Positions 1,973 through 16,570 of a stretch of DNA of 24,937 bases are shown here, in pieces. Numbering within the stretch: the first letter of the stretch is position 1; each line of letters starts with the position of its first letter. The notes under the pieces were generated by a model, which ran no database searches, was not told where the DNA came from, and saw only the letters and a program-made list of their open reading frames with translations. Origin of the DNA: a virus (Duplodnaviria > Caudoviricetes); the IMG/VR virus record IMGVR_UViG_3300025652_000505, positions 1 through 24,937 of that record; one strand, given 5' to 3'. Made by a program: the position numbers and the translations under genes.

Positions 1973-4135
1973 TTAATCTATTGTAGCACCCGACACTATA
2001 TTGCGCTCTAAACTCTGTGCAGTAGTTACGTCATTTGCTACTACATAAGTTTGTATTGGTTGCTGACTCTGTCCTCCGATAGCGTCTGCTAACTGACTCG
2101 TATCTCCTGCACCTACTGTATTAAAAGCGGGTGGAACAGAAGCCATAGGCGGTACAGGCTCTAATCCTGATCTTGCCGAATATGATGGCGATGACGGTGT
2201 GCCTCCACCTCCAGAAGCTTTTGGCTTTGTCTTCATGATGTCCTTTACAGACTTAAAACCGATAGATGCGACCGTTGCTATGTTCGCTATTTTTAAAGCA
2301 ATACCCCAAGGAGTCGCTGTTTTAGTTGCTAGTTCTGCCGTTATACCTTGATATGTATTTATTAACGCTGAGGCTATTGCGGCTGCTTTTCCTGCCTTTG
2401 AATTTTCGCCTAATAAATTAGCGATACTTGCAAAGGTTTGTTGAGCCATACTAATTTCAGCATTTCTTTTGATTTCGTCTTGCTCTGTTTCTAATGCATC
2501 GTATTTAGCATTTATAGCAGCCATCTCTTCTTGTGTCGCACCGAACCTTGTAAGCTCGTCTAAAGCCATTTGTCTTTGCTTCTCTAGTGCTAACTCCTCT
2601 TCGCCTAGTTGAGCCTCTAAAAACGCCTCCTTTTCAACAGCTAATGCCTCTGCCTCCTCCTCTTCTATTATTTTCTTTTTTTCTTTAAATGCCTGTTCGA
2701 CATCTAAGATCATTTGCTGTTTTTCAGTCTCTGATAATTTAAGATCTTCTAATGCTAAAATCCTTGCTTCTTTTTCTGCCTCTATTTCTGCAAACTTATT
2801 TTCTTTGTCTTTTATTCTTAAAGAGTCTTTAAAGTCTTGCACCGCTTTTGCGTTCGCTATCTCTTCGTCTGATTTTGCTTTGTCGGCTGCAATAGCTTCG
2901 GCATTAAAGGCTATAATCTGCCCTGTAACTTCTCTTTGTTTCATTAACCTAGCTGTTTCTAGATTAATTAAATTAGCTTTTAAATTAGCCTCCTCTTCTA
3001 GATCCTCTTTTGTAGAGTCTCCTAATGCGTTTTCTGCTTGTTTTGCGTTTAATCTTAGTTGAGCAGCTTTAATTTCTTGCTGTGTTATTTGATCTTCTAA
3101 TTCGCTTGCTTCTTTTAGAAATGCGATTCTTTCTTGCGTCGTAAACTTCTCTTTGTTTACAGACTTTTCTAATAACTCTGCTCGTTTTCTATTTGCCTCT
3201 GCTCTGTCTGTTATTAGCTTTCTGTCTAGCTTATCTGCCGCTGCTCTTTGATCTGCTATTTTTCCTGCAGCCTTACCTTCTTTTATTATCTCTGTTGTTA
3301 ATTCTTTAACAGAGCTTGATACTTTTCCGATAGTATCTTTTACGCCTGTCATGGTGTCTATGTAAGAAGTACCTGCTGACTTTGCATCTTCCATAGCTCC
3401 AGAAAAATCGCCACTAAACACCTTTTTAATAGCACTACCTAAAAAGCCTAATGTATCAATAGCACTAGAAATTCTATTGGTTATATTTTCGACGAATGCA
3501 TCTTTAAAGTCGATGAGTGCTTGTTTAGGATTTTCAAAAACACTAATTAAAAAGTTTCCTAATGACGCTAGTCTGTCTGTAAACACAGAAACAGTAGCAC
3601 CTAATATGCCCATTATTTTATTCCACTTATTCTGCCCTTCTTCTGACGATGTAAAGGCTGCACTTAATGACGTTAAAGCAATTAGTAAAGCACCAATACC
3701 TGTTCCGATAATGGCAATCTTCATAAGATTAAAACCTTTCGTAGCACCGCCTATTGACTTCGTCATGCCTTGTATGCCTGATATAAGACCGCCAGTCTTT
3801 TGATCTACCATACCGATAACACCACCGTAATCTGCAGCGTTTTCTTCTGCTTCTTTTAACTCCTCATTAGCTTTTTTACGCTCTTTGTTTAGCTCTTTTA
3901 AACCCTGTCTTTCGTCTCCTAGCTGTTCTTTAGTTTTAGCTATTTGATCATTTAACGCTTTCCTTGCAGCTAAGTCTGTTTTAGATGTTTTCTTTAGCTC
4001 CTTTTCATATCCTCTTAATTCCTTTTCTAAGTCAAAAAGCAAGTCCTCTTGGATCTTTAAATTTTCGTTAAGATCTTCAACGTTCTTTTGCGCCTGTTCA
4101 GTAGATACCTTTAAACTATATTCTTTTACTTCCAT
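1973..4135 (-). CDS. Tape-measure-like tail protein
   Basis: 720 aa, Ala/Glu/Lys-rich helical coiled coil with Gly-rich hydrophobic segments (IAIIGTGIGALLIAL). Located in the tail module. Confidence 0.7.
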   Translation of the reverse strand: MEVKEYSLKVSTEQAQKNVEDLNENLKIQEDLLFDLEKELRGYEKELKKTSKTDLAARKALNDQIAKTKEQLGDERQGLKELNKERKKANEELKEAEENAADYGGVIGMVDQKTGGLISGIQGMTKSIGGATKGFNLMKIAIIGTGIGALLIALTSLSAAFTSSEEGQNKWNKIMGILGATVSVFTDRLASLGNFLISVFENPKQALIDFKDAFVENITNRISSAIDTLGFLGSAIKKVFSGDFSGAMEDAKSAGTSYIDTMTGVKDTIGKVSSSVKELTTEIIKEGKAAGKIADQRAAADKLDRKLITDRAEANRKRAELLEKSVNKEKFTTQERIAFLKEASELEDQITQQEIKAAQLRLNAKQAENALGDSTKEDLEEEANLKANLINLETARLMKQREVTGQIIAFNAEAIAADKAKSDEEIANAKAVQDFKDSLRIKDKENKFAEIEAEKEARILALEDLKLSETEKQQMILDVEQAFKEKKKIIEEEEAEALAVEKEAFLEAQLGEEELALEKQRQMALDELTRFGATQEEMAAINAKYDALETEQDEIKRNAEISMAQQTFASIANLLGENSKAGKAAAIASALINTYQGITAELATKTATPWGIALKIANIATVASIGFKSVKDIMKTKPKASGGGGTPSSPSYSARSGLEPVPPMASVPPAFNTVGAGDTSQLADAIGGQSQQPIQTYVVANDVTTAQSLERNIVSGATID

Positions 4136-4266
4136 AGTATTGTTTTTTTAATAAGTTTAAATCCTGACTTAAAGTCTTTAGGTAAGGCGTATTTTCCTTG
4201 TGCAATTCGTATGTTCTCTGTCTCTCCTTTTGAGAATTGTAGTAATTCGATTATATTTTTTATCAT
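4126..4266 (-). CDS. Small hypothetical protein (46 aa)
   Basis: MIKNIIELLQ...IAQGKYALPK...LWK*. The ATG at 4266 makes an ATGA overlap with the upstream stop, so it is preferred over the track's start at 4341. Confidence 0.6.
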   Translation of the reverse strand: MIKNIIELLQFSKGETENIRIAQGKYALPKDFKSGFKLIKKTILWK

Positions 4267-6659
4267 GGTTGTCCGCAAATTTTGCTTGTTATTTTTCCGT
4301 TTGAGTCTACAACTATTAATCCTTGATAACCTGCAGAACAAAATGTGCTGTTTTCTGCAGATCCTGCTTGTGTATAGCTTCCAGAACTAGGTGTTGTTGT
4401 AAGCTCTTTGTTTGTATATACATAGTCTCCAACGCTTAAATTAGGAGCAATACCAATAGAGGATCTATACCATAGTATGCCTCCTCCTGTACCTTGATAC
4501 GTTATGTTCTGTATTGATAGCGAATAATTACTGACTTTATTTAACAGCTCCATTTCGCTTTTACCGTTTTGCAGGTTTGTCGTTATAGAATTAATTATAT
4601 AATTTCTGCTGTTTATTGTAAACGTGTCATTAAGTTTAAAATTAAATAAAATCTTTAATGGCAAAATAGCTGACACTTTAGTAATCCTTCGGCTTCTATT
4701 AAATACATCTATTATATACTGACTATGATAATCGGCAAATAAGGTGTCGTTAAAGTTCTGAGATTGTTGATACTCGTTTTGTTCAAATGCAAAGTTTATG
4801 TTTTGAGTACCTTGAGTAGCATCTAAATAAAGACTGTTACTAGGAATCCAGTAAGCGTTGACAGAAACCTTGCCAGTTCCCGTTGTCGATGTTTGATAGC
4901 TAATAGGCGTGCCGTTCGTTTTTAAAGTCGCATAAAAAATCAAAGGCTTACCTATATAAGATTGAGCGTTTTCGTTTACAGACCATCCCCACATTGGATC
5001 TATTAAAGCTCCGTTGCTTCCGTTTAAAAGTCTCTCATATTGCATGTGCTCAAAAGGAACTTTAACTTCATATAATTTAGTCGATGCGTTATAATTAATC
5101 CCGCCTGTTCCGTCACTATTCGTGCCTCCTATATAGGGCAAAGATCCCCAAGCTCGACCGTCTAGCTGTTGAAACTGTTTAGCTAAAAACGTTCCAGTCC
5201 CTTCATATCTATATATAATTTCCTTGTAAGGCAGGGCTACGTTTACTTGACTTTTGGTTACATCAACATATTCTGATATATTATAATTTACTGGCGCATC
5301 GTTTCCGTTAATGTCGGCAGAAGTATAGTAACTGTAATCAACCCCCGCTGCCCCGTCTAAAGGTCTAACTACTATTGTCCCCTCATCGTCTACATAAGCG
5401 ACTAAATTAAACATCTTGAAAAGACCAGTAAGAAACGACATTATACTAACGTCAGGGATCTGCTCAGCAACGATAAAATCAAATTCCGTAACAGCATTAA
5501 AAGCACCTATAGTTACTGTCTTTGTCCAACCTACAGGAGCTTGTCCCGTATTTCTAGTAAAGCCTTCAAAAAACCAAGAGATACCTGAGAAATTAACCTG
5601 TGTAGTGTGTAAGATAGTTACTGTATAAACTCCGTTTGGAACAAAATACTGTAGGCTTATGTTCGTCGTTCCTGTCTGAGCAGTAGATGTAAATATAACG
5701 TTTCCTGATTCTCTTACTTGTACTTGATATTCTTGCGAATTTCCTGATACTGGCGTTACGAGTAGTTGATTGTCAATTATAGCGTTTGGGTTTGTAATTG
5801 CAGATGCAGGAACTACAATAGTATTAAAGCTAGTAATAATATTATCTATTCCTTGAGGCGACCAACCCGATGTCGAAGTAGTATAGTTTACAATCTGCTG
5901 AGGTGCTTGAACATAACCGCTCTTACGATGCAACCACATATAGAGGTTATAGAATTCTGGATTACTAGTGCTAAAGAAATCTCTTGAGAAAACTATATTA
6001 TTTGCATAACCGTTTGCAGTAGTATATTTCGTTTCAATTTCTAGTATTATCTCATATAGTCTTAAAGCGAATTTTAACTGATCATAATAAACCCCTTGCT
6101 GAGAGCTTGAATTATAATGTAGATTATCAACGTTTGTAGTAGAAGAGTTATAAAACAGCCTTTGAGTATGCGTTATAAAAGGAACAATTAATTTACCGTT
6201 TCCTTGTTGAGATGCAAAGAACGCTTTAATAGTTTGTTGATTATAAGTCTGCGTATAATCGCTACTGGCAAAGAATAATGATCCTAGTTTGTCATCCCCT
6301 AAAATATCAGGCAATTCTACTGTATTTCCAAAGAACGTAATTCTATATGTATGCGCTAAGTTGTTTTTAAGATCAACCCCTTCTAGCTTTATTCGACCTG
6401 TTTTGTATGGTAAAAAATTAAGCTCAATAATACCGTTTTTTTTAATCCTTGCATCAAAACCGTCTACAATGTTATAGTTGTAATAATGCTTAAAAATCTT
6501 ATTATTGGTTTTAGTAGCAGGTACAGAAAAGGTCTTTGTAAATGAAGTAAATATCTTTGCAATATCTTTTACATTCTGAATAGTCTGAGTAATAGAAACT
6601 GATTCGTCTTTGAAAAGCTCTATCCTTTGACCTTCTATGTATAGCTGTAATTCTTGCAT
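4263..6659 (-). CDS. Large tail/baseplate structural protein
   Basis: 798 aa, beta-rich and Thr/Asn/Ser-rich. The N-terminus (LFKDESVSITQTIQNVKDIAKIFTSFTKTFSVPA) resembles phage minor tail/hub proteins. Tail-module context. Confidence 0.65.
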   Translation of the reverse strand: MQELQLYIEGQRIELFKDESVSITQTIQNVKDIAKIFTSFTKTFSVPATKTNNKIFKHYYNYNIVDGFDARIKKNGIIELNFLPYKTGRIKLEGVDLKNNLAHTYRITFFGNTVELPDILGDDKLGSLFFASSDYTQTYNQQTIKAFFASQQGNGKLIVPFITHTQRLFYNSSTTNVDNLHYNSSSQQGVYYDQLKFALRLYEIILEIETKYTTANGYANNIVFSRDFFSTSNPEFYNLYMWLHRKSGYVQAPQQIVNYTTSTSGWSPQGIDNIITSFNTIVVPASAITNPNAIIDNQLLVTPVSGNSQEYQVQVRESGNVIFTSTAQTGTTNISLQYFVPNGVYTVTILHTTQVNFSGISWFFEGFTRNTGQAPVGWTKTVTIGAFNAVTEFDFIVAEQIPDVSIMSFLTGLFKMFNLVAYVDDEGTIVVRPLDGAAGVDYSYYTSADINGNDAPVNYNISEYVDVTKSQVNVALPYKEIIYRYEGTGTFLAKQFQQLDGRAWGSLPYIGGTNSDGTGGINYNASTKLYEVKVPFEHMQYERLLNGSNGALIDPMWGWSVNENAQSYIGKPLIFYATLKTNGTPISYQTSTTGTGKVSVNAYWIPSNSLYLDATQGTQNINFAFEQNEYQQSQNFNDTLFADYHSQYIIDVFNRSRRITKVSAILPLKILFNFKLNDTFTINSRNYIINSITTNLQNGKSEMELLNKVSNYSLSIQNITYQGTGGGILWYRSSIGIAPNLSVGDYVYTNKELTTTPSSGSYTQAGSAENSTFCSAGYQGLIVVDSNGKITSKICGQP

Positions 6660-10221: not shown

Positions 10222-11385
10222 TTAATTAATAGCATAAGTCCCGAATCTAGGCTTGGACAGTATCGAATATGTAGCATAGCGACAGGGATCGATTATATGA
10301 TTGTTGTCATCTACAGGCGTATTTAGTAAAGCACCAGTCTTGTCTTCTTTCCACTTATAGTTTCTAAACTCTGATATAGCATTACTAGACGTTGACAGTA
10401 TATTTATCTTGTATCGTTTTAATAGATCTATTCCTGCATTAACAGAGTCTTTACCTTTTAGGCTTGGAAAAATGTTATGTCCCATGCGTCTTAGCTCCTC
10501 AATAAGTCTAGGCTCTGCACTATCGGCGTATATAGGTTTGTTCTCTAGCTTCTCGCTTAACAGGAATTTATGTATGTCAGTAGTCGTCATAGCGGTTCTA
10601 TATAAATGCTCTTTTACATATAGGTTTATGTCTTTAGTATAAACTGAAACAAGCGTACTAGGATCATTAGAAAAGCCAAAGTCCATTCCGTATGCTACTA
10701 GGTCTGCGTCTTCTGGAATATGTGAAACCTCAGCGTATCTAAATACGGTGCTTCGACTTGCAGCCCTTTCGCCTAATCCGTATATCTGCCAGTACTGTTC
10801 GTCAGTATCTTTAAGAAGCTCGATCTCTTTTTTTATTGACTCCTCGACAAAAGGATTATCTAAGTATGTAGTCTTAAAGAAAGCGCAGTCGTCTCTAGGC
10901 AGTACCTTGTCGTATATCCAATGATACTCGTCTGACGGATTAAAGTCAATAACAATACGCTCTTGTGTTCTAAAAACTAGCTGTTGCCAATCCTCCCAAA
11001 ATAACTCGTTGCCTTCATTAATAAAAAGCAGATCTCTTTTACGTCCTCTAATCTTTTGCGGTTGATCAAGCGATATAAACTCGATTAAGTTTCCGAACAG
11101 ATAATATTCAGAATTAGATTTATTATGATACTTTTCACTGTAAAGGTTATGACCTTCTAATATGCTCATAAAGTCTCTTAAAACAGTAGCACGTAAGCTA
11201 GGAAACGATTTACGGCATACAGTAATAACCTTATTTTTATTATTAGTGCAATACTCGAAAATAATCCAAAGTATTATGTTATATGTTTTACCTGACCTAG
11301 TACCGCCTTGCTCAACTATAATCTTTTTGTCAGAGATTAATAAGTGATCATATACGATATTAGTCTTTATCTTTATTTGATCCAA
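10222..11385 (-). CDS. terL: Terminase large subunit (PBSX/SPP1-like)
   Basis: Walker A GGTRSGKT, Walker B LLFINEG, FNP coupling motif and TTYLDNPF. Nuclease motifs GMDFG, ADSAEP and NHIIDPCRY. Confidence 0.95.
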   Translation of the reverse strand: MDQIKIKTNIVYDHLLISDKKIIVEQGGTRSGKTYNIILWIIFEYCTNNKNKVITVCRKSFPSLRATVLRDFMSILEGHNLYSEKYHNKSNSEYYLFGNLIEFISLDQPQKIRGRKRDLLFINEGNELFWEDWQQLVFRTQERIVIDFNPSDEYHWIYDKVLPRDDCAFFKTTYLDNPFVEESIKKEIELLKDTDEQYWQIYGLGERAASRSTVFRYAEVSHIPEDADLVAYGMDFGFSNDPSTLVSVYTKDINLYVKEHLYRTAMTTTDIHKFLLSEKLENKPIYADSAEPRLIEELRRMGHNIFPSLKGKDSVNAGIDLLKRYKINILSTSSNAISEFRNYKWKEDKTGALLNTPVDDNNHIIDPCRYATYSILSKPRFGTYAIN

Positions 11386-11719
11386 TTATCTCGATTTGAA
11401 AGTTAGTAGGCATTCCTTCTGCTCCTGTAATTTCTTGACGTTCTACATACCCTCTGTTCTTGCCTTTCGTCTTTAGGTAAAATATAGTCGCTGAGGTATT
11501 GTTAGCTGATATTTGATTGTGGAGCTTACTCTCTGCAAAGTCTAAAGCTACATTCTCAATATCCCGCACCTCTTCGGCAAAGACAGAATCTTCTTTTAGC
11601 CATTTATAGTATGTGCTTCTAGGAATACCTGCCTCCCTACAGGCTACCGTTACAACGCCTAAGCTCTGCTCTAGTGATTTTAATAGTGTTTCCTTTTTTA
11701 TGTGTCTACTTTTGTCCAT
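11360..11719 (-). CDS. terS: Terminase small subunit
   Basis: N-terminal HTH (ACREAGIPRSTYYKW) and ATIFYLKTKGK.RGY. Overlaps the terL start. Confidence 0.8.
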   Translation of the reverse strand: MDKSRHIKKETLLKSLEQSLGVVTVACREAGIPRSTYYKWLKEDSVFAEEVRDIENVALDFAESKLHNQISANNTSATIFYLKTKGKNRGYVERQEITGAEGMPTNFQIEIIGSNKDKD

Positions 11720-11841
11720 TATATTTGTGTTAAAATTATTATTATTAGTGCTATAAAGGCAACGAGTATAGCTTTAACGCTACTTGAATATTGTTTGTCT
11801 GACCTTCCTTGCCTCGATCTAAATTGTCTTTGTTTTTTCAT
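11719..11841 (-). CDS. Small membrane protein (40 aa)
   Basis: MKKQRQFRSRQGRSDKQYSSSVKAILVAFIALIIIILTQI*. The stop overlaps the terS ATG (TAATG). Confidence 0.65.
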   Translation of the reverse strand: MKKQRQFRSRQGRSDKQYSSSVKAILVAFIALIIIILTQI

Positions 11842-12484
11842 CTTGTTTATGTTTTAATTTTAGGCGTATTTGATTAGCGGACTCCCAAGCCTTATTGTAT
11901 TCCGCATCAGCGAATAACTTAGAGAATCCTGTTATGTGTTTTAACTTAACTAACTCCTCAACTCCCATGCCTAACTCGTTGCAGATCTCTTTATCGCTCC
12001 ACCCGTTCTCTAACATAGTAAACACCATGCTTGACATTCCTGCTATTGAGTGCATACCTCTTGCTCTATTGTGGCGTACCGTACTTGCCATACGGTCGTT
12101 TATATCCTTTTCCAATACTACGATCGGCAGACGTCCTTTATTACGTTCTAGGATGTCCGCATTAGTCTTAGCAGTATAGTATCTGTGAAACCCGTCTATA
12201 ATAACATACATTTTCTTTTCGTTGTCATATATCGTTACGATTGGTTGCGTATAGCCATCATGCTTAATAGACGTATATAAAAGCCCCATTTCTTTTTTAG
12301 CTACTGAGTTAGGGTTGTAGTCGTTTGGGCAGACCTCCTCGATCCGTACCCATCTAATCCTGTTTACAGGCTGATCTTTTAATGGCGATAGGTTGTGCAG
12401 TAATTCTTTGATCTCTTCTATTATAGAAATTTGATCTCCTGCCTTTATCTCTTTAGTCAATAGGTTTTTTAAAGTTGCTTTCAT
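11819..12484 (-). CDS. ibrB: IbrB-like ParB/Sulfiredoxin-domain protein
   Basis: PNDYNPNSVA, SIKHDGYTQPIV, IIDGFHR and RMASTVRHNRARG, with a C-terminal HTH-like EICNELGM. ATGA overlap with the ibrA-like gene. Confidence 0.85.
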   Translation of the reverse strand: MKATLKNLLTKEIKAGDQISIIEEIKELLHNLSPLKDQPVNRIRWVRIEEVCPNDYNPNSVAKKEMGLLYTSIKHDGYTQPIVTIYDNEKKMYVIIDGFHRYYTAKTNADILERNKGRLPIVVLEKDINDRMASTVRHNRARGMHSIAGMSSMVFTMLENGWSDKEICNELGMGVEELVKLKHITGFSKLFADAEYNKAWESANQIRLKLKHKQDEKTKTI

Positions 12485-13647
12485 ATAAGTCCTTTTACGT
12501 ATTTGTCATATTTTCGATTAATCTCGATGTTTTTGCTTGTCAGTTTTCCGTCAGCATATTTCTTTACTGTATTAAAGTACGGCGATGTAAGAAAGTTGCC
12601 GAGCTTAGTAAAGTCAAAGTCTTGTGACAGGACTGTTTTAACTAACGTTTTATAGAAATCCACATATACCTTGTTCGATACCATGTACTTTTTATTCTTT
12701 TCTATTTTCTTATGCATCTTTTTTAGAAACTCCTCGTCGTTTGCGAGATTTTCTGCTAAGTATAATGCGTACTCTTTCCACGACTTAAACATATACGGCA
12801 GATCCGCAGGGCATTTAAAGGCATCACTTTTAAGATGTTTGATTGCATTAGTTCCGTCTATACGTTCAGCGATCCTATTCCATGTATTAGGCTCTATCTC
12901 CTGTATTAATAATAAGTTTTGAATGGCAGTTTCATGATGCAGGTTAGAGATCCGCATATCGCTTACACTTACGCCGTGTGTAAATAAGGCATCATAAATC
13001 TTGTTGTATTTTATATTGTTATCAAAGATGTATTTCCAGACGTCGCTATAACTCCAATCATAAATAGGATAAAATGTATAATGCCCTTTGCTTTCGTTTA
13101 GCTTCTTGCCCCATGTAATATCTTTATATGTTAAAGAGCTTGTAAGGCTCATCATTCTCTTAGGGCTTTCTTCTGTTCTAACACCCGAAATGTAGCACGA
13201 CTTTTGATTAGGAAAATGCACAGCAAAAATCTTTTCGAATAGCTCATGAAATCCAAAGTCTAAATACTTGTTTTCTTTTATAGAGATCTCTGAGCGTTCT
13301 CGCATGTGCTTAACTCCGTCTTGCCATATATAAATGTATTTACTATGTGAGCTTACGTTATTAAACCACTTCATTGGCATTTGAAACCACATAGGCTCGA
13401 TCCTTTTGTCTTCAAATACTGATTCGCAATAGTCAGCCGTACCTTGCCACTCAGCTTCTTGATCAACCCATAATACTTTTAACGGTAGTCTGTTTCGCTC
13501 CTCTGCTATTTTTAATGTAAGGTTAAGGCATACAGTACTGTCCTTGCCTCCCGAAAATCCGACTACTACATTCTCGAAATCGTCAAAGAGCCTGTGTATT
13601 CTTTTTTCTGCTTCAACGAGTACATTGTTTTTACTGTATACCTTCAT
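12481..13647 (-). CDS. ibrA: IbrA-like PAPS-reductase-family PP-loop protein (DUF3440 type)
   Basis: PP-loop FSGGKDS, DQEAE, GVRTEESPKR, YPIYDWSYSDVW and MRIS. Confidence 0.85.
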   Translation of the reverse strand: MKVYSKNNVLVEAEKRIHRLFDDFENVVVGFSGGKDSTVCLNLTLKIAEERNRLPLKVLWVDQEAEWQGTADYCESVFEDKRIEPMWFQMPMKWFNNVSSHSKYIYIWQDGVKHMRERSEISIKENKYLDFGFHELFEKIFAVHFPNQKSCYISGVRTEESPKRMMSLTSSLTYKDITWGKKLNESKGHYTFYPIYDWSYSDVWKYIFDNNIKYNKIYDALFTHGVSVSDMRISNLHHETAIQNLLLIQEIEPNTWNRIAERIDGTNAIKHLKSDAFKCPADLPYMFKSWKEYALYLAENLANDEEFLKKMHKKIEKNKKYMVSNKVYVDFYKTLVKTVLSQDFDFTKLGNFLTSPYFNTVKKYADGKLTSKNIEINRKYDKYVKGLI

Positions 13648-13669
13648 GTTATTTTTATGTTATTCTATG

Positions 13670-14293
13670 TTAGTTTTTATCTCTTTTTAAAGAGTTGATA
13701 GTTTTTTCCAATCGTTTAGAATTAAACTCGTTTCCTACAAACCTCATCTTGTTTTGTATTGCACTACGAGCAGAGTTTCCCATACCGCATGTAGGATCTA
13801 ACAGAATAGCCCCCTCCTTAGCTAATAAAGGAATTGCGACCTTTAAACTATCCTCATCTATTGCCCCCTCTAAGGCATCTAAATTAGGCAATACTAGATT
13901 AGGGTTCGTTGTTCCTACAATTACGGGATTTGTAAGCAGCTTACTGCCTGACTTATATCTAAGGTTATAAACTCTCTCATTATATATAACATCTTTAACG
14001 TCGTTTAATGTTTCGTCTAGCCATTTATTTCCTGTCTCTAAAAAGACATAACCGTCAACATGATTTTTAATCATATTCTTTATTATCTTAATAAGACTTT
14101 TATATGACATAGCCTCGTTTTCCTGTCCCGTATGACGTTTGTTTAGTGTACACCAATATTTCATGTTGCCATCGCCCCAAGGTGGATCTGTGTAAAGTAT
14201 ATGCGCCTTAGATCCTTTTAATAATTTGTTAAAGTCTACGTTTTGCACATCTTCATTTGATACTGTGTGTTTTCCGATTTCTATTGTTTTCAT
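13670..14293 (-). CDS. Compact N6-adenine/N4-cytosine methyltransferase-fold protein (beta-class motif order)
   Basis: Motif IV YTDPPW near the N-terminus. Motif I LLDPTCGMGNS and motif II FVGNEFN near the C-terminus. Only 207 aa. Confidence 0.8.
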   Translation of the reverse strand: MKTIEIGKHTVSNEDVQNVDFNKLLKGSKAHILYTDPPWGDGNMKYWCTLNKRHTGQENEAMSYKSLIKIIKNMIKNHVDGYVFLETGNKWLDETLNDVKDVIYNERVYNLRYKSGSKLLTNPVIVGTTNPNLVLPNLDALEGAIDEDSLKVAIPLLAKEGAILLDPTCGMGNSARSAIQNKMRFVGNEFNSKRLEKTINSLKRDKN

Positions 14294-14296
14294 AAT

Positions 14297-14575
14297 TTAT
14301 ATTTTTGCTCGATTAATTATTGCAGTCGGATCGTCAAATCCTTTTTCGTCTGTCATTACCCAATATTTATAGTCTCCTATATTATAGTATGTATATTCTT
14401 TATTGTAAAATTTCTCTTTATATCCGTTATCGTTTATATACTGCATCGCTTTTAAAAACACAGAATCCGAATAGTATTTTCTGCATATCCAACTATGCGG
14501 AATGTTAGCCATAGACTTAGCGAATGTGAATGTTGTTTCTAATTCTAAAAATAAATGTATCTCTTCTTTTGTCAT
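14297..14575 (-). CDS. Hypothetical aromatic-rich protein (92 aa)
   Basis: FTFAKSMANIPHSW...YTYYNIGDYKYWVM. ATGA overlap with speD, and 3 nt from the MTase-fold gene. Confidence 0.75.
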   Translation of the reverse strand: MTKEEIHLFLELETTFTFAKSMANIPHSWICRKYYSDSVFLKAMQYINDNGYKEKFYNKEYTYYNIGDYKYWVMTDEKGFDDPTAIINRAKI

Positions 14576-14940
14576 AGCGTTGATCCTCTTAGTATTACTG
14601 TTTCTTTTAAATGTTCGGGCGTAAATAGATTGTCGATGTATTTAATAACAGACCCATGCTCGAAATCCTTACAAGAGTATATGTCGGCAGAGAAATAATC
14701 TAACTCTGGAAACGCATGAAAAGTAAAATGCGACTCCATAAATATAATACCTCCTGTAATCCCTATGCTTTTAATGTCAATCATGGTTTCGTCTACTACA
14801 TAGATTAAAGGATCAGAGAGCGGTTTTAAGCCTATTAGTTTTGTAATATCTAGTAACATACTCCTGATAAGATCTTCGTCGTTTAAAGGATCTCTATTGC
14901 ATCCGTAGGCATCTATAAGTAAATGTTTTCCGTTTCTCAT
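14572..14940 (-). CDS. speD: Pyruvoyl-dependent S-adenosylmethionine decarboxylase family proenzyme
   Basis: GKHLLIDAYGC, GITG and the autocleavage motif E|SH in ESHFTFHAFPE. Catalytic Cys in DIYSCK, C-terminal RG. Confidence 0.88.
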   Translation of the reverse strand: MRNGKHLLIDAYGCNRDPLNDEDLIRSMLLDITKLIGLKPLSDPLIYVVDETMIDIKSIGITGGIIFMESHFTFHAFPELDYFSADIYSCKDFEHGSVIKYIDNLFTPEHLKETVILRGSTL

Positions 14941-15485
14941 TCCTGCGCTACATTAAATTCGTGTCCGCACTCTGGGCACATAGTTTCAATAAATTTTTTT
15001 TCTGTTCCTTTTTGGAATGTGCTTCCTATGTTATCCGCTCCCTTTTGAATATCAGCGTCAGTAACTTCTTGATCCGATTGACCAGGAAACATCTCGGGTT
15101 TAAAGTCTGTAGTCTCAATTTTGTTTTCCCAAACTCCCAGTCCCCAATCGTTTAGTTCGCTAGAAGTCCAATCGTTAGCAAGGATGTCCCAATCCCAATC
15201 GCCAAAACTGACGTTGTCTTTAATAATAAATTGCTCTATCTGTGCTTCTGTTAGGTTCTCTGCTCGTATTACTGGGATCTCTTTAAGTCCAATCTCTTTA
15301 CAGGCTTGATAACGCATATTGCCACCTATAATGCCACCCTCTGCATTTACAACGATAGGTCTTAGGTTTAACATTTCTGGAAAATCCTTAATGCTTTTAA
15401 CTAGCTTTTTAAATTCTGCCTCTTTAATGCTCCTCGGGTTTGTAGGATTAGAAAAGACTTCTGTTATTTTTACTTTCTCAATCAT
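14937..15485 (-). CDS. ParB-like N-terminal domain protein with C-terminal Zn-ribbon half-site
   Basis: NPTNPR, LVKSIKDF, RPIVV, IIGGNMRY, IIKDN and GDWDW. Ends in CPECGHEF. Confidence 0.85.
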   Translation of the reverse strand: MIEKVKITEVFSNPTNPRSIKEAEFKKLVKSIKDFPEMLNLRPIVVNAEGGIIGGNMRYQACKEIGLKEIPVIRAENLTEAQIEQFIIKDNVSFGDWDWDILANDWTSSELNDWGLGVWENKIETTDFKPEMFPGQSDQEVTDADIQKGADNIGSTFQKGTEKKFIETMCPECGHEFNVAQE

Positions 15486-15489
15486 ATCT

Positions 15490-15873
15490 TTATTTGTTTA
15501 GTTGTTCCTCTAGTTTCTTTTCTAGTCTTTTGCATTTCTTTTCTAGATAGTCTATTTGATTAATTTCGTCATGTGATATATCGGGATCAAAAACAAACTG
15601 ACTCTGTAGGTTTATTAGCTCTGAGTTTTGTTGTTGATAGTAAGGGTATTTTTTATAGCTGTGCATTACATTTGCCATATTAATTTTCTTACCGTTTTGG
15701 TCATAAAACAGAACTATATTTTTCCATCTCATTTTTAGCTTGTCTCTTAGCAAGTAAGTTAGTAAGGCTCTAACCTCAACAACTTTGCGCTCTCGGTTAT
15801 TAGCAAAGACGTCGATCCCTGAAAGCTCAGAGATCTTGTCTGCTATGTTTATAGGTTTTGAATTATTTAGCAT
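15490..15873 (-). CDS. Putative DNA-binding protein resembling the DnaA C-terminal HTH domain
   Basis: RERKVVEVRALLTYLLR...NMANVMHS resembles DnaA domain IV (R...V.AR....YL.R...DHTTV.H). Confidence 0.5.
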   Translation of the reverse strand: MLNNSKPINIADKISELSGIDVFANNRERKVVEVRALLTYLLRDKLKMRWKNIVLFYDQNGKKINMANVMHSYKKYPYYQQQNSELINLQSQFVFDPDISHDEINQIDYLEKKCKRLEKKLEEQLNK

Positions 15874-16570
15874 ATTTTTTATATAAATCTGTTAAGTATC
15901 TTGTTTGATCTTTAGCATTTGAGTAATGTTCTAAGTAATGCTTTTTGTTTATTTTTTCTATTATTTTATAGTCTAGTCCTTTAAACTGATAATCTAATGT
16001 TTTTAATATCCTGCTTATGTTTGCTGAGTAAGAATTAAATTTCTCGTTTTTATTAGTTGATAATATTTTAATGCAATTATATATTCTACAAGCCCTAGAT
16101 GTATCTGACACAAAATCGTTTTCTTTTAGTTTTGTTAAAATATTGTTTTGTAATCCTGTTAGTAATAGCGTTAAAATGTTTGTTTTACTAAATTTCTTTT
16201 TAGAGTCAATATGCCAATCATTACATATTTCTAATGCTTGTATGCATTCTTTGTTTCCTGTCGCAGCGTTACGTTGTGCAAAATCAAATGCCGTCCACTT
16301 TTTACTAATTTGTAAATCATGTATATTCTCTTCTTTAAAATTCTTGACTACAAAATACTCAATAGCTATGCCTAATTCTTTAGCGACTTGTAACCTGTGC
16401 TGACCGTCTATAATTCCATGCTTATAGTTTACCATTATAGGTGTTTGTAATCCGATTGATTCTACAGACTCTTTGATTCTTTTAACGTTTTTAGGATCTA
16501 GTTGTCTGTTGCCAATAATTTTTGTAAATAGATTGTAGTTTAAAGTTCTTTTAATTTCTTGTTGTTTCAT
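15863..16570 (-). CDS. ParB/Srx-like domain protein
   Basis: GNR, PIMVN and IIDGQHRL motifs. Confidence 0.75.
   Translation of the reverse strand: MKQQEIKRTLNYNLFTKIIGNRQLDPKNVKRIKESVESIGLQTPIMVNYKHGIIDGQHRLQVAKELGIAIEYFVVKNFKEENIHDLQISKKWTAFDFAQRNAATGNKECIQALEICNDWHIDSKKKFSKTNILTLLLTGLQNNILTKLKENDFVSDTSRACRIYNCIKILSTNKNEKFNSYSANISRILKTLDYQFKGLDYKIIEKINKKHYLEHYSNAKDQTRYLTDLYKKYAK

Follow-up and report, generated by a model that had tools for sequence, protein, structure and literature searches.

A modular IbrA/IbrB gene cassette, with an optional SpeD-fold gene, ahead of the terminase genes of a tailed phage

The DNA analyzed here is a 24.9-kb stretch (24,937 nucleotides; hereafter the window) of IMG/VR record IMGVR_UViG_3300025652_000505 (Caudoviricetes), a virus record that is 74% complete. 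Six of its genes, directly ahead of those encoding the terminase, represent one version of a modular cassette: a ParB-domain protein with a C-terminal CxxC (ParB-CxxC), a small unnamed domain (U92), IbrA and IbrB constitute a constant core, followed by the terminase, and in related phages a slot in the cassette is filled by methyl-, glycosyl- or acetyltransferases. The SpeD-fold protein of the window is probably not a S-adenosylmethionine (SAM) decarboxylase.

All six genes are encoded on the minus strand. The first product is a ParB/Srx-domain protein with one C-terminal CxxC (15485-14937, 182 aa; PF02195, E 2.7e-8), followed by a SpeD-fold pyruvoyl decarboxylase proenzyme (14940-14572, 122 aa; PF02675, E 3e-22), U92 (14575-14297, 92 aa; no family match), a small beta-class amino-methyltransferase (MTase) fold (14293-13670, 207 aa; weak PF01555 match, DPPW alignment), IbrA, which combines a PP-loop (SGGKDS) domain with DUF3440 (13647-12481, 388 aa; PF01507+PF11922, phrog_2302 at E 9e-81), and IbrB, a further ParB/Srx protein (12484-11819, 221 aa; PF02195, phrog_2159 at E 3e-70). 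ATGA overlaps of 4 nt occur at 14937-40, 14572-75 and 12481-84, and the remaining intergenic gaps are 3 and 22 nt. The terminase small subunit gene, terS (11360..11719, minus strand; PHROG terS matches), begins 99 nt downstream of IbrB, and is followed by that of a PBSX-type large subunit, terL (10222..11385, minus strand; TIGR01547 over its cut-off, and Pfam). This arrangement, described in an initial annotation made from the sequence alone, was confirmed. The gene family calls of that annotation all hold, except that its "Zn ribbon" is really the single C-terminal CxxC, and its label "SAM decarboxylase" fits as the name of a fold, which does not imply the substrate. The best PHROG match of the cassette ParB is phrog_498, the ParB part of ParB-MTase fusions, and its CxxC is kept in relatives.

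A scan for IbrA provided 79 IMG/VR loci (the best 80 of 86 confirmed stretches), and one more, L107, was added from the SpeD scan. From these 80 loci, 22 were dropped, in which one cassette end was cut off; 58 were evaluable and 44 were left after dereplication. The sample is rich in close kin because it was seeded on the IbrA of the window, and the IbrA tree was made by a quick method. ParB, IbrA and IbrB were each present in all 58 evaluable loci and U92 in 53; in the dereplicated set, the corresponding numbers were 44 of 44 and 40 of 44. The linkage of the core genes is far beyond chance. Their constancy supports the earlier proposal of a conserved, terminase-linked and uncharacterised enzyme cassette, and only these four genes are constant, so that the six do not form the fixed system initially proposed. 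The ParB-CxxC gene is either the first of the cassette or follows IbrB.

The remaining genes varied considerably, with 26 distinct gene sets among the 44 loci. A glycosyltransferase (GT)-like family, C5, was found in 21 loci, the DPPW MTase and GNATs in 14 each, SpeD in 12, a class I MTase in nine, a second GT-like family in seven (its label weakly supported, E 0.046), an EPP-type MTase in six, an HxD..H protein (2-oxoglutarate (2OG)-like by eye) in six and an O-MTase in two. GT-A-like enzymes (phrog_854) and weak GT2 matches were seen among the slot enzymes. The HxD...H protein (167-190 aa; 2OG-Fe-like by eye; L037:2362-2934, L039:5501-6004 and five more) is always located beside a C5 GT and has no Pfam or PHROG match. 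In L012, a GT-like gene and IbrA share one 644-aa open reading frame (ORF; IbrA match at 3625-4785), and the two are separate in its close relative L010; the joint ORF may be a genuine fusion or an artefact of assembly. An apparent exclusion between SpeD and GNATs (0 of 12 versus 14 of 32; p=0.008, uncorrected, four tests) is not claimed, because an excluded truncated locus (L031/L101) carries both genes. Among cultured phages, Microbacterium phage Hendrix encodes two C5 GT-like proteins, a U92-MTase fusion, a GNAT, IbrA, three ParB-like proteins and TerL, while Phaedrus and FCL-2 carry minimal versions of the cassette adjoining the terminase.

The initial annotation had proposed, as one of two routes, that SpeD produces decarboxylated SAM (dcSAM), from which an aminopropyl group is transferred to DNA through the MTase. 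In the 44 loci, which are not independent rows, both genes occurred in 6, SpeD only in 6, the MTase only in 8 and neither in 24 (Fisher p=0.15, odds ratio 3, not significant). Coupling was rejected on this basis; what was seen is an assortment without dependence, which had been named beforehand as refuting the proposal. The MTase is replaced by GT-like genes in L001, L004 and L005, and SpeD is kept in the latter two, whose IbrA proteins are 94% and 98% identical to that of the window (L005 being cut downstream). Since SpeD and the MTase assort without dependence, the idea of a dcSAM route through the MTase is undercut, the more so as SpeD is likelier to be an arginine decarboxylase. The absence of a spermidine synthase from the window, also noted initially, was borne out: none was detected by the Pfam scan, nor in five related phage records, including a 98%-complete twin, G004 (four differences from the window in 13,164 compared bases), although the host could supply one.

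In a tree of 57 rows, whose bootstrap had not settled and in which long branches were flagged, the SpeDs of the cassette occupy at least four places; SpeD-fold genes thus entered it repeatedly, from at least four lineages. They lie on either side of U92 or ahead of IbrA, and in two lineages (L062 and P0074) SpeD is fused to U92. Most IMG/VR loci with the window's own SpeD clade (20 of 22, three seen in part) have it inside the cassette; a first genome scan for this clade gave no matches. SET-domain genes adjoin SpeD-fold genes outside the cassette (L104:4620-5354 and L105:5001-5735) and, in the form of SET-U92 fusions, also within it (L051 and L053).

The putative self-processing residues of the window's SpeD (S70, H75 and C90) are invariant in all 30 clade members and match S63, H68 and C83 of PMC10407285. 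The protein scored 72.2 bits against TIGR03330, under the cut-off of 75.65, and lacks the FxPxG loop of the SAM decarboxylases (AdoMetDC) of T. maritima and S-PM2. Several SpeD homologues from phages decarboxylate arginine or ornithine, and for AXH71538 of HTVC201P arginine decarboxylase activity has been demonstrated (PMC9992855); the cassette SpeD of L062 is 53-55% identical to this protein. The SpeDs of L051 and L053 carry three of four ornithine-decarboxylase marks, and that of the window none of them (Gln, Thr, Phe, Tyr; positions read from the text and Fig S5 of PMC10407285). Of the two candidates for the proline that tells AdoMetDC from arginine decarboxylase (PMC10407285), the window's SpeD has the one in HxFP and lacks the one in FxPxG. 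The 80 best of 585 confirmed cellular relatives (28-39% identity to the window's SpeD) included 54 with agmatinase within 3 kb, 10 with deoxyhypusine synthase (DHS)/SpeY and 57 with either; a weak SpeE-like neighbour was found in two. Agmatinase/SpeY context has been used to find arginine decarboxylases (PMC10407285). The 53% match of one cassette copy to a proven arginine decarboxylase, together with the agmatinase context, makes agmatine a likelier product than dcSAM, and the window's SpeD is likely to use arginine rather than SAM. The optional decarboxylase of the cassette would thus probably yield agmatine or putrescine.

Against an arginine substrate stand the HxFP proline, which the window's SpeD retains, the bias of the cellular sample, since the search pattern excludes many canonical enzymes, and the concentration of the agmatinase-or-DHS/SpeY positives in Chloroflexota (38 of 57). 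In addition, the SpeD of phiN3, a proven AdoMetDC (PMC9992855), groups on the window's side of the tree, in the long-loop group. In L118, L119, L120, L123 and L146, an archaeal SpeD-fold domain is fused to DHS/SpeY, beside agmatinase.

The DPPW MTase shows the beta-class order in its alignment, with DPPW before DPxxGxG. Its closest solved relatives are the DNA adenine MTases DpnA and CcrM (E 7e-6 to 8e-5), and its PF01555 score (20.5 bits) is under the cut-off of 26.7. It is likely a plain enzyme for N6-methyladenine (m6A) or N4-methylcytosine (m4C), which would provide an optional extra decoration. GATC is over-represented in the window (119 versus about 77 expected) and GGATCC is absent. GATC was rejected as the MTase target, because its enrichment is clade-wide and irrespective of the slot gene, being apparent in the GT-only loci L001, L004 and L005 and not in the MTase-bearing L011, L038 and L042.

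The U92 domain is defined by the pattern FAK(T/S)M..PH ... YW ... INR, in which H27, Y71, W72, I87 and N88 are invariant. The family comprises 3,450 clusters at E<=0.001, and searches of Pfam, PHROG, NCBIfam and PADLOC gave no match. Its predicted structure (predicted local distance difference test, pLDDT, 96) had no Foldseek match in the PDB at E<=0.001 and none in Atlas, which does not make the fold new; the best VIA match was at Z 5.2, with a root-mean-square deviation (rmsd) of 5.1, and one unnamed viral homologue was found. The long U92 matches scanned (59, among the best 150) included 25 with a class I MTase, four with a GNAT and one with a T5orf172-like domain; some long U92 proteins are tandem repeats, and SET-U92 fusions also occur. 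A tblastn search with the window's U92 recovered no cultured phage, and a profile search located the domain in Hendrix. U92 may be a targeting or reader domain.

In IbrA, both Pfam domains, PF01507 (PAPS_reduct) and PF11922 (DUF3440), exceeded their cut-offs. The PP-motif SGGKDS, R157, E160, R164, R232, S234, H238, E239 and D343 are invariant in 41 IbrA sequences, in which no cysteine is conserved (the best Cys column has 26 of 41 rows). The nearest folds to the IbrA model (pLDDT 87; the match barely probed past residue ~250) are two adenylyltransferases, FAD synthase (Z 16.4, rmsd 3.6, 171 aligned) and CysD (Z 15.6, rmsd 4.4, 173 aligned); TilS is a weak match (Z 10-12). IbrA scored far under all curated CysH and DndC cut-offs, and its DndC and BrxP matches are weak. 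Conserved catalytic or Fe-S cysteines characterize DndC and the reductases of phosphoadenosine phosphosulfate (PAPS) and adenosine phosphosulfate (APS). Their lack in IbrA speaks against the chemistry of PAPS reductase or DndC and, together with the adenylyltransferase-like fold, suggests that the label "PAPS reductase" of IbrA-type genes is wrong. Matches to such genes occur in 223 of 50,697 phage records.

IbrA is predicted to bind IbrB. The partner protein carries the motifs NxYNPN and DGFHR, and a conserved C-terminal tail, which is predicted to dock on IbrA. The predicted complex of IbrA with IbrB 20-215 scored 0.74, versus 0.23 for the best of three controls. Of 157 solved complexes, 116 attain this mark, as do 2 of 215 mismatched pairs. 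The runs share at least 82% of contacts, with a partner pLDDT of at least 65. IbrB 185-213 would contact IbrA 1-13 and 197-228, with invariant residues on both sides.

A blanket anti-restriction role, as first suggested, is at odds with the composition of the window, in which GGCC, CCGG and CGCG are absent (about 28, 17 and 19 expected), and 6-bp palindromes occur at 0.74 of expectation. Pooled GGCC was at 0.35-0.44 of expectation in 57 loci of 7 kb or more, with no cassette-free phages as control, and the Hendrix segments showed no palindrome avoidance. A densely hypermodified genome would have less need of avoidance; a mark, if there is one, is therefore likely to be sparse or to have a different purpose.

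In the mechanism that we propose as a best guess, which follows the second route of the initial annotation (activation by IbrA and then ligation of an amine), the predicted IbrA-IbrB complex would spend ATP in adenylating a limited set of phage DNA sites around packaging, whereupon an amine, likely agmatine from the optional SpeD-fold enzyme, would displace AMP. Cassettes that lack SpeD would draw on the amine pool of the host, and the slot enzymes would supply optional extra decoration. The amine is a candidate co-substrate in view of the repeated arrival of arginine/ornithine-type decarboxylases. DNA is the target that we somewhat favor, as suggested by the two ParB-domain proteins, the DNA-type beta-class MTase, a position at a ParB-terminase locus of the type predicted to modify DNA in packaging (PMC4738411) and, elsewhere, a tested ParB that activates a phage DNA dioxygenase (PMC13229309); the published support is indirect. 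The chain as a whole, with adenylation by IbrAB at packaging and an incoming amine, is tentative and on balance doubtful. Its most specific form is clearly unlikely: here IbrAB would be a new class of DNA writer, which would join agmatine or putrescine to a base carbonyl or a backbone phosphate that it has first adenylated. The phage DNA would then contain an agmatidine-like base or a phosphoramidate, a handle to which U92 would direct the interchangeable enzymes for sugar, methyl and acetyl groups. Several observations weigh against the mechanism. Half of the 12 SpeD-bearing cassettes belong to the window's own clade, and the other 32 of the 44 lack SpeD. The two loci of that clade outside any cassette (L104 and L105) have SpeD beside replication genes, with no IbrA in records that are 59-61% complete. 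The SpeD-U92 fusions are weak evidence because U92 fuses with many neighbours. Phaedrus and FCL-2 have no annotated tailoring gene, and in Gaia and Mwe-JY13 IbrA is found among replication or recombination genes, not beside the terminase. The glycosyl-, O-methyl-, acetyl- and SET-type slot enzymes would suit protein or glycan targets equally. PAPS/APS reductases match the IbrA fold at Z 14.2-15.0, which is 1.4-2.2 below FAD synthase. Finally, no experiment on any cassette member was found in the literature accessible without subscription.

Phage glycosyltransferases are known to glycosylate virions. The cassette might accordingly decorate something other than DNA, either virion proteins and glycans or a small nucleotide-like molecule directed against host defence; GT-A-like enzymes, an O-MTase, GNATs and SET domains in the slot, the continued avoidance of restriction palindromes in cassette-bearing phages and the small-molecule substrates of the nearest IbrA folds would all be in keeping with such a target. 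We consider this rather unlikely, given the constancy of the ParB-domain proteins, the DNA MTases that are the closest solved relatives of the DPPW enzyme and the analogous ParB that activates a DNA enzyme (PMC13229309). A comparably modest chance is accorded to a core that marks DNA with SpeD merely co-expressed, raising free polyamines for DNA condensation with no covalent amine. The many cassettes that lack SpeD and the location of L104 and L105 would be explained thereby, and SpeD homologues have been described as prevalent metabolic genes in marine phages (PMC9992855); yet SpeDs of at least four lineages have entered this cassette of 3-4 kb, in varying positions and twice in fusion with U92, and the window's clade is largely confined to it. 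Far less probable is the transfer of aminopropyl from dcSAM to DNA by the DPPW enzyme or IbrA, as a general defence against restriction. The intact processing residues and HxFP proline of SpeD would fit it, a long-loop enzyme can be a true AdoMetDC, as in phiN3, and the MTase accompanies SpeD in 6 of 12 cassettes, other SAM-dependent folds in 8 of 12. The absence of dependence between the genes, the GT that takes the place of the MTase in L004 and L005, the arginine- or ornithine-decarboxylase-like nature of other cassette SpeDs, the missing FxPxG loop and the avoided restriction sites all point the other way. The least credible reading is that IbrA is a sulfur enzyme, either a PAPS reductase encoded by an auxiliary gene or a DndC-like writer of phosphorothioate: the PF01507 and phrog_2302 labels, the weak DndC and BrxP matches and the fold held in common with PAPS/APS reductases are opposed by the lack of any invariant cysteine, by scores far below the CysH and DndC cut-offs and by the annotated recurrent neighbour clusters of the cassette loci, among which no sulfur-supply gene was found.

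In TilS, TiaS and DndC/TdpC, a nucleic-acid group is activated with ATP and then meets a nucleophile (lysine, agmatine or sulfur). The step proposed for IbrA would be analogous, although its matches to TilS and DndC are weak and the DndC-type cysteines are absent. Routes to polyamine-thymine, in turn, start from hydroxymethyluracil (hmU). A thymidylate-synthase-family gene (dUMP hydroxymethylase) was found in none of three records at least 90% complete (the 98% twin and two complete relatives), by a search whose control was positive in 10 of 14 genomes, and no Pfam or PHROG label for an hmU-DNA kinase or an amino acid/diamine:DNA transferase occurs among the 31 window ORFs, for which no dedicated profile search was made. 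The modification proposed here would resemble putrescinylthymine of phiW-14 and diaminopropane-thymine (PMC13458397) in placing a diamine on phage DNA.

The same PAPS_reduct+DUF3440 enzyme beside a ParB-like partner is seen in E. coli IbrAB, in the pair phrog_2302+phrog_2159 and in Flavobacterium phages 6H and FCL-2. In the window, the pair belongs to a modular cassette that also has U92, another ParB, the tailoring slot and the optional SpeD fold; the annotated extras are lacking in FCL-2 and Phaedrus. IbrAB has been called of unknown function (PMC4541368), and the literature open without subscription yielded no paper characterising its chemistry or tying SpeD to it. Loci that combine ParB with the terminase large subunit were predicted to modify phage DNA during packaging (PMC4738411, citing Iyer et al. 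2013). The cassette shares with them an amino-MTase and ParB domains immediately before the terminase; it differs in that it can do without its MTase and has a PP-loop protein as its constant enzyme. IbrA, U92 and SpeD are not mentioned in the available part of the PMC4738411 account. A ParB has been tested and found to activate a phage DNA dioxygenase (PMC13229309). The ParB-dependent T-dioxygenases of phages share with the cassette, in outline, a ParB-activated priming enzyme and variable tailoring genes, but the putative priming enzyme of the window is adenylyltransferase-like and not a 2OG dioxygenase. Moreover, a stable contact is predicted between IbrA and IbrB, whereas the ParB-dioxygenase work, as far as available, trapped no stable complex (PMC13229309). 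The arginine and ornithine decarboxylases SpeDA and SpeDC (PMC9992855, PMC10407285) have the same fold and likewise represent orphan speD genes without speE; in the available parts of both papers they are treated as metabolic genes, with no link to a modification cassette, and the window's own SpeD clade, unlike them, has no tested member.

IbrA-type genes are routinely labelled as auxiliary sulfur genes for a "PAPS reductase". In view of the predicted contact, the pair of IbrA and IbrB would be the unit for purification, and with Hendrix (a full cassette without SpeD) and Phaedrus (a minimal one) in culture, the long-open function of IbrAB is directly testable. If the proposed mechanism is true, adenylation-based ligation of an amine to DNA would be a chemistry that was not found described for DNA in the literature searched.

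Apart from the cassette, the minus strand of the window encodes replication, lysis, packaging and tail proteins. Scans for promoters and terminators gave counts at chance level (28 versus 32.6 and 4 versus 4.3). A 127-aa protein (15490-15873, minus strand), encoded directly before the cassette and present in 18 loci, has a weak match to the DnaA C-terminal helix-turn-helix and is a possible regulator. Further upstream, a third ParB-domain gene (15863-16570, minus strand; 235 aa, phrog_12305) is found in only five close relatives, and relatives close in IbrA, for instance L004 and L006, are without it. The remaining ORFs of the twin G004 appear by inspection to be structural, among them capsid-like and portal-like genes that the window lacks (L203:2863-4986 and 718-1698).

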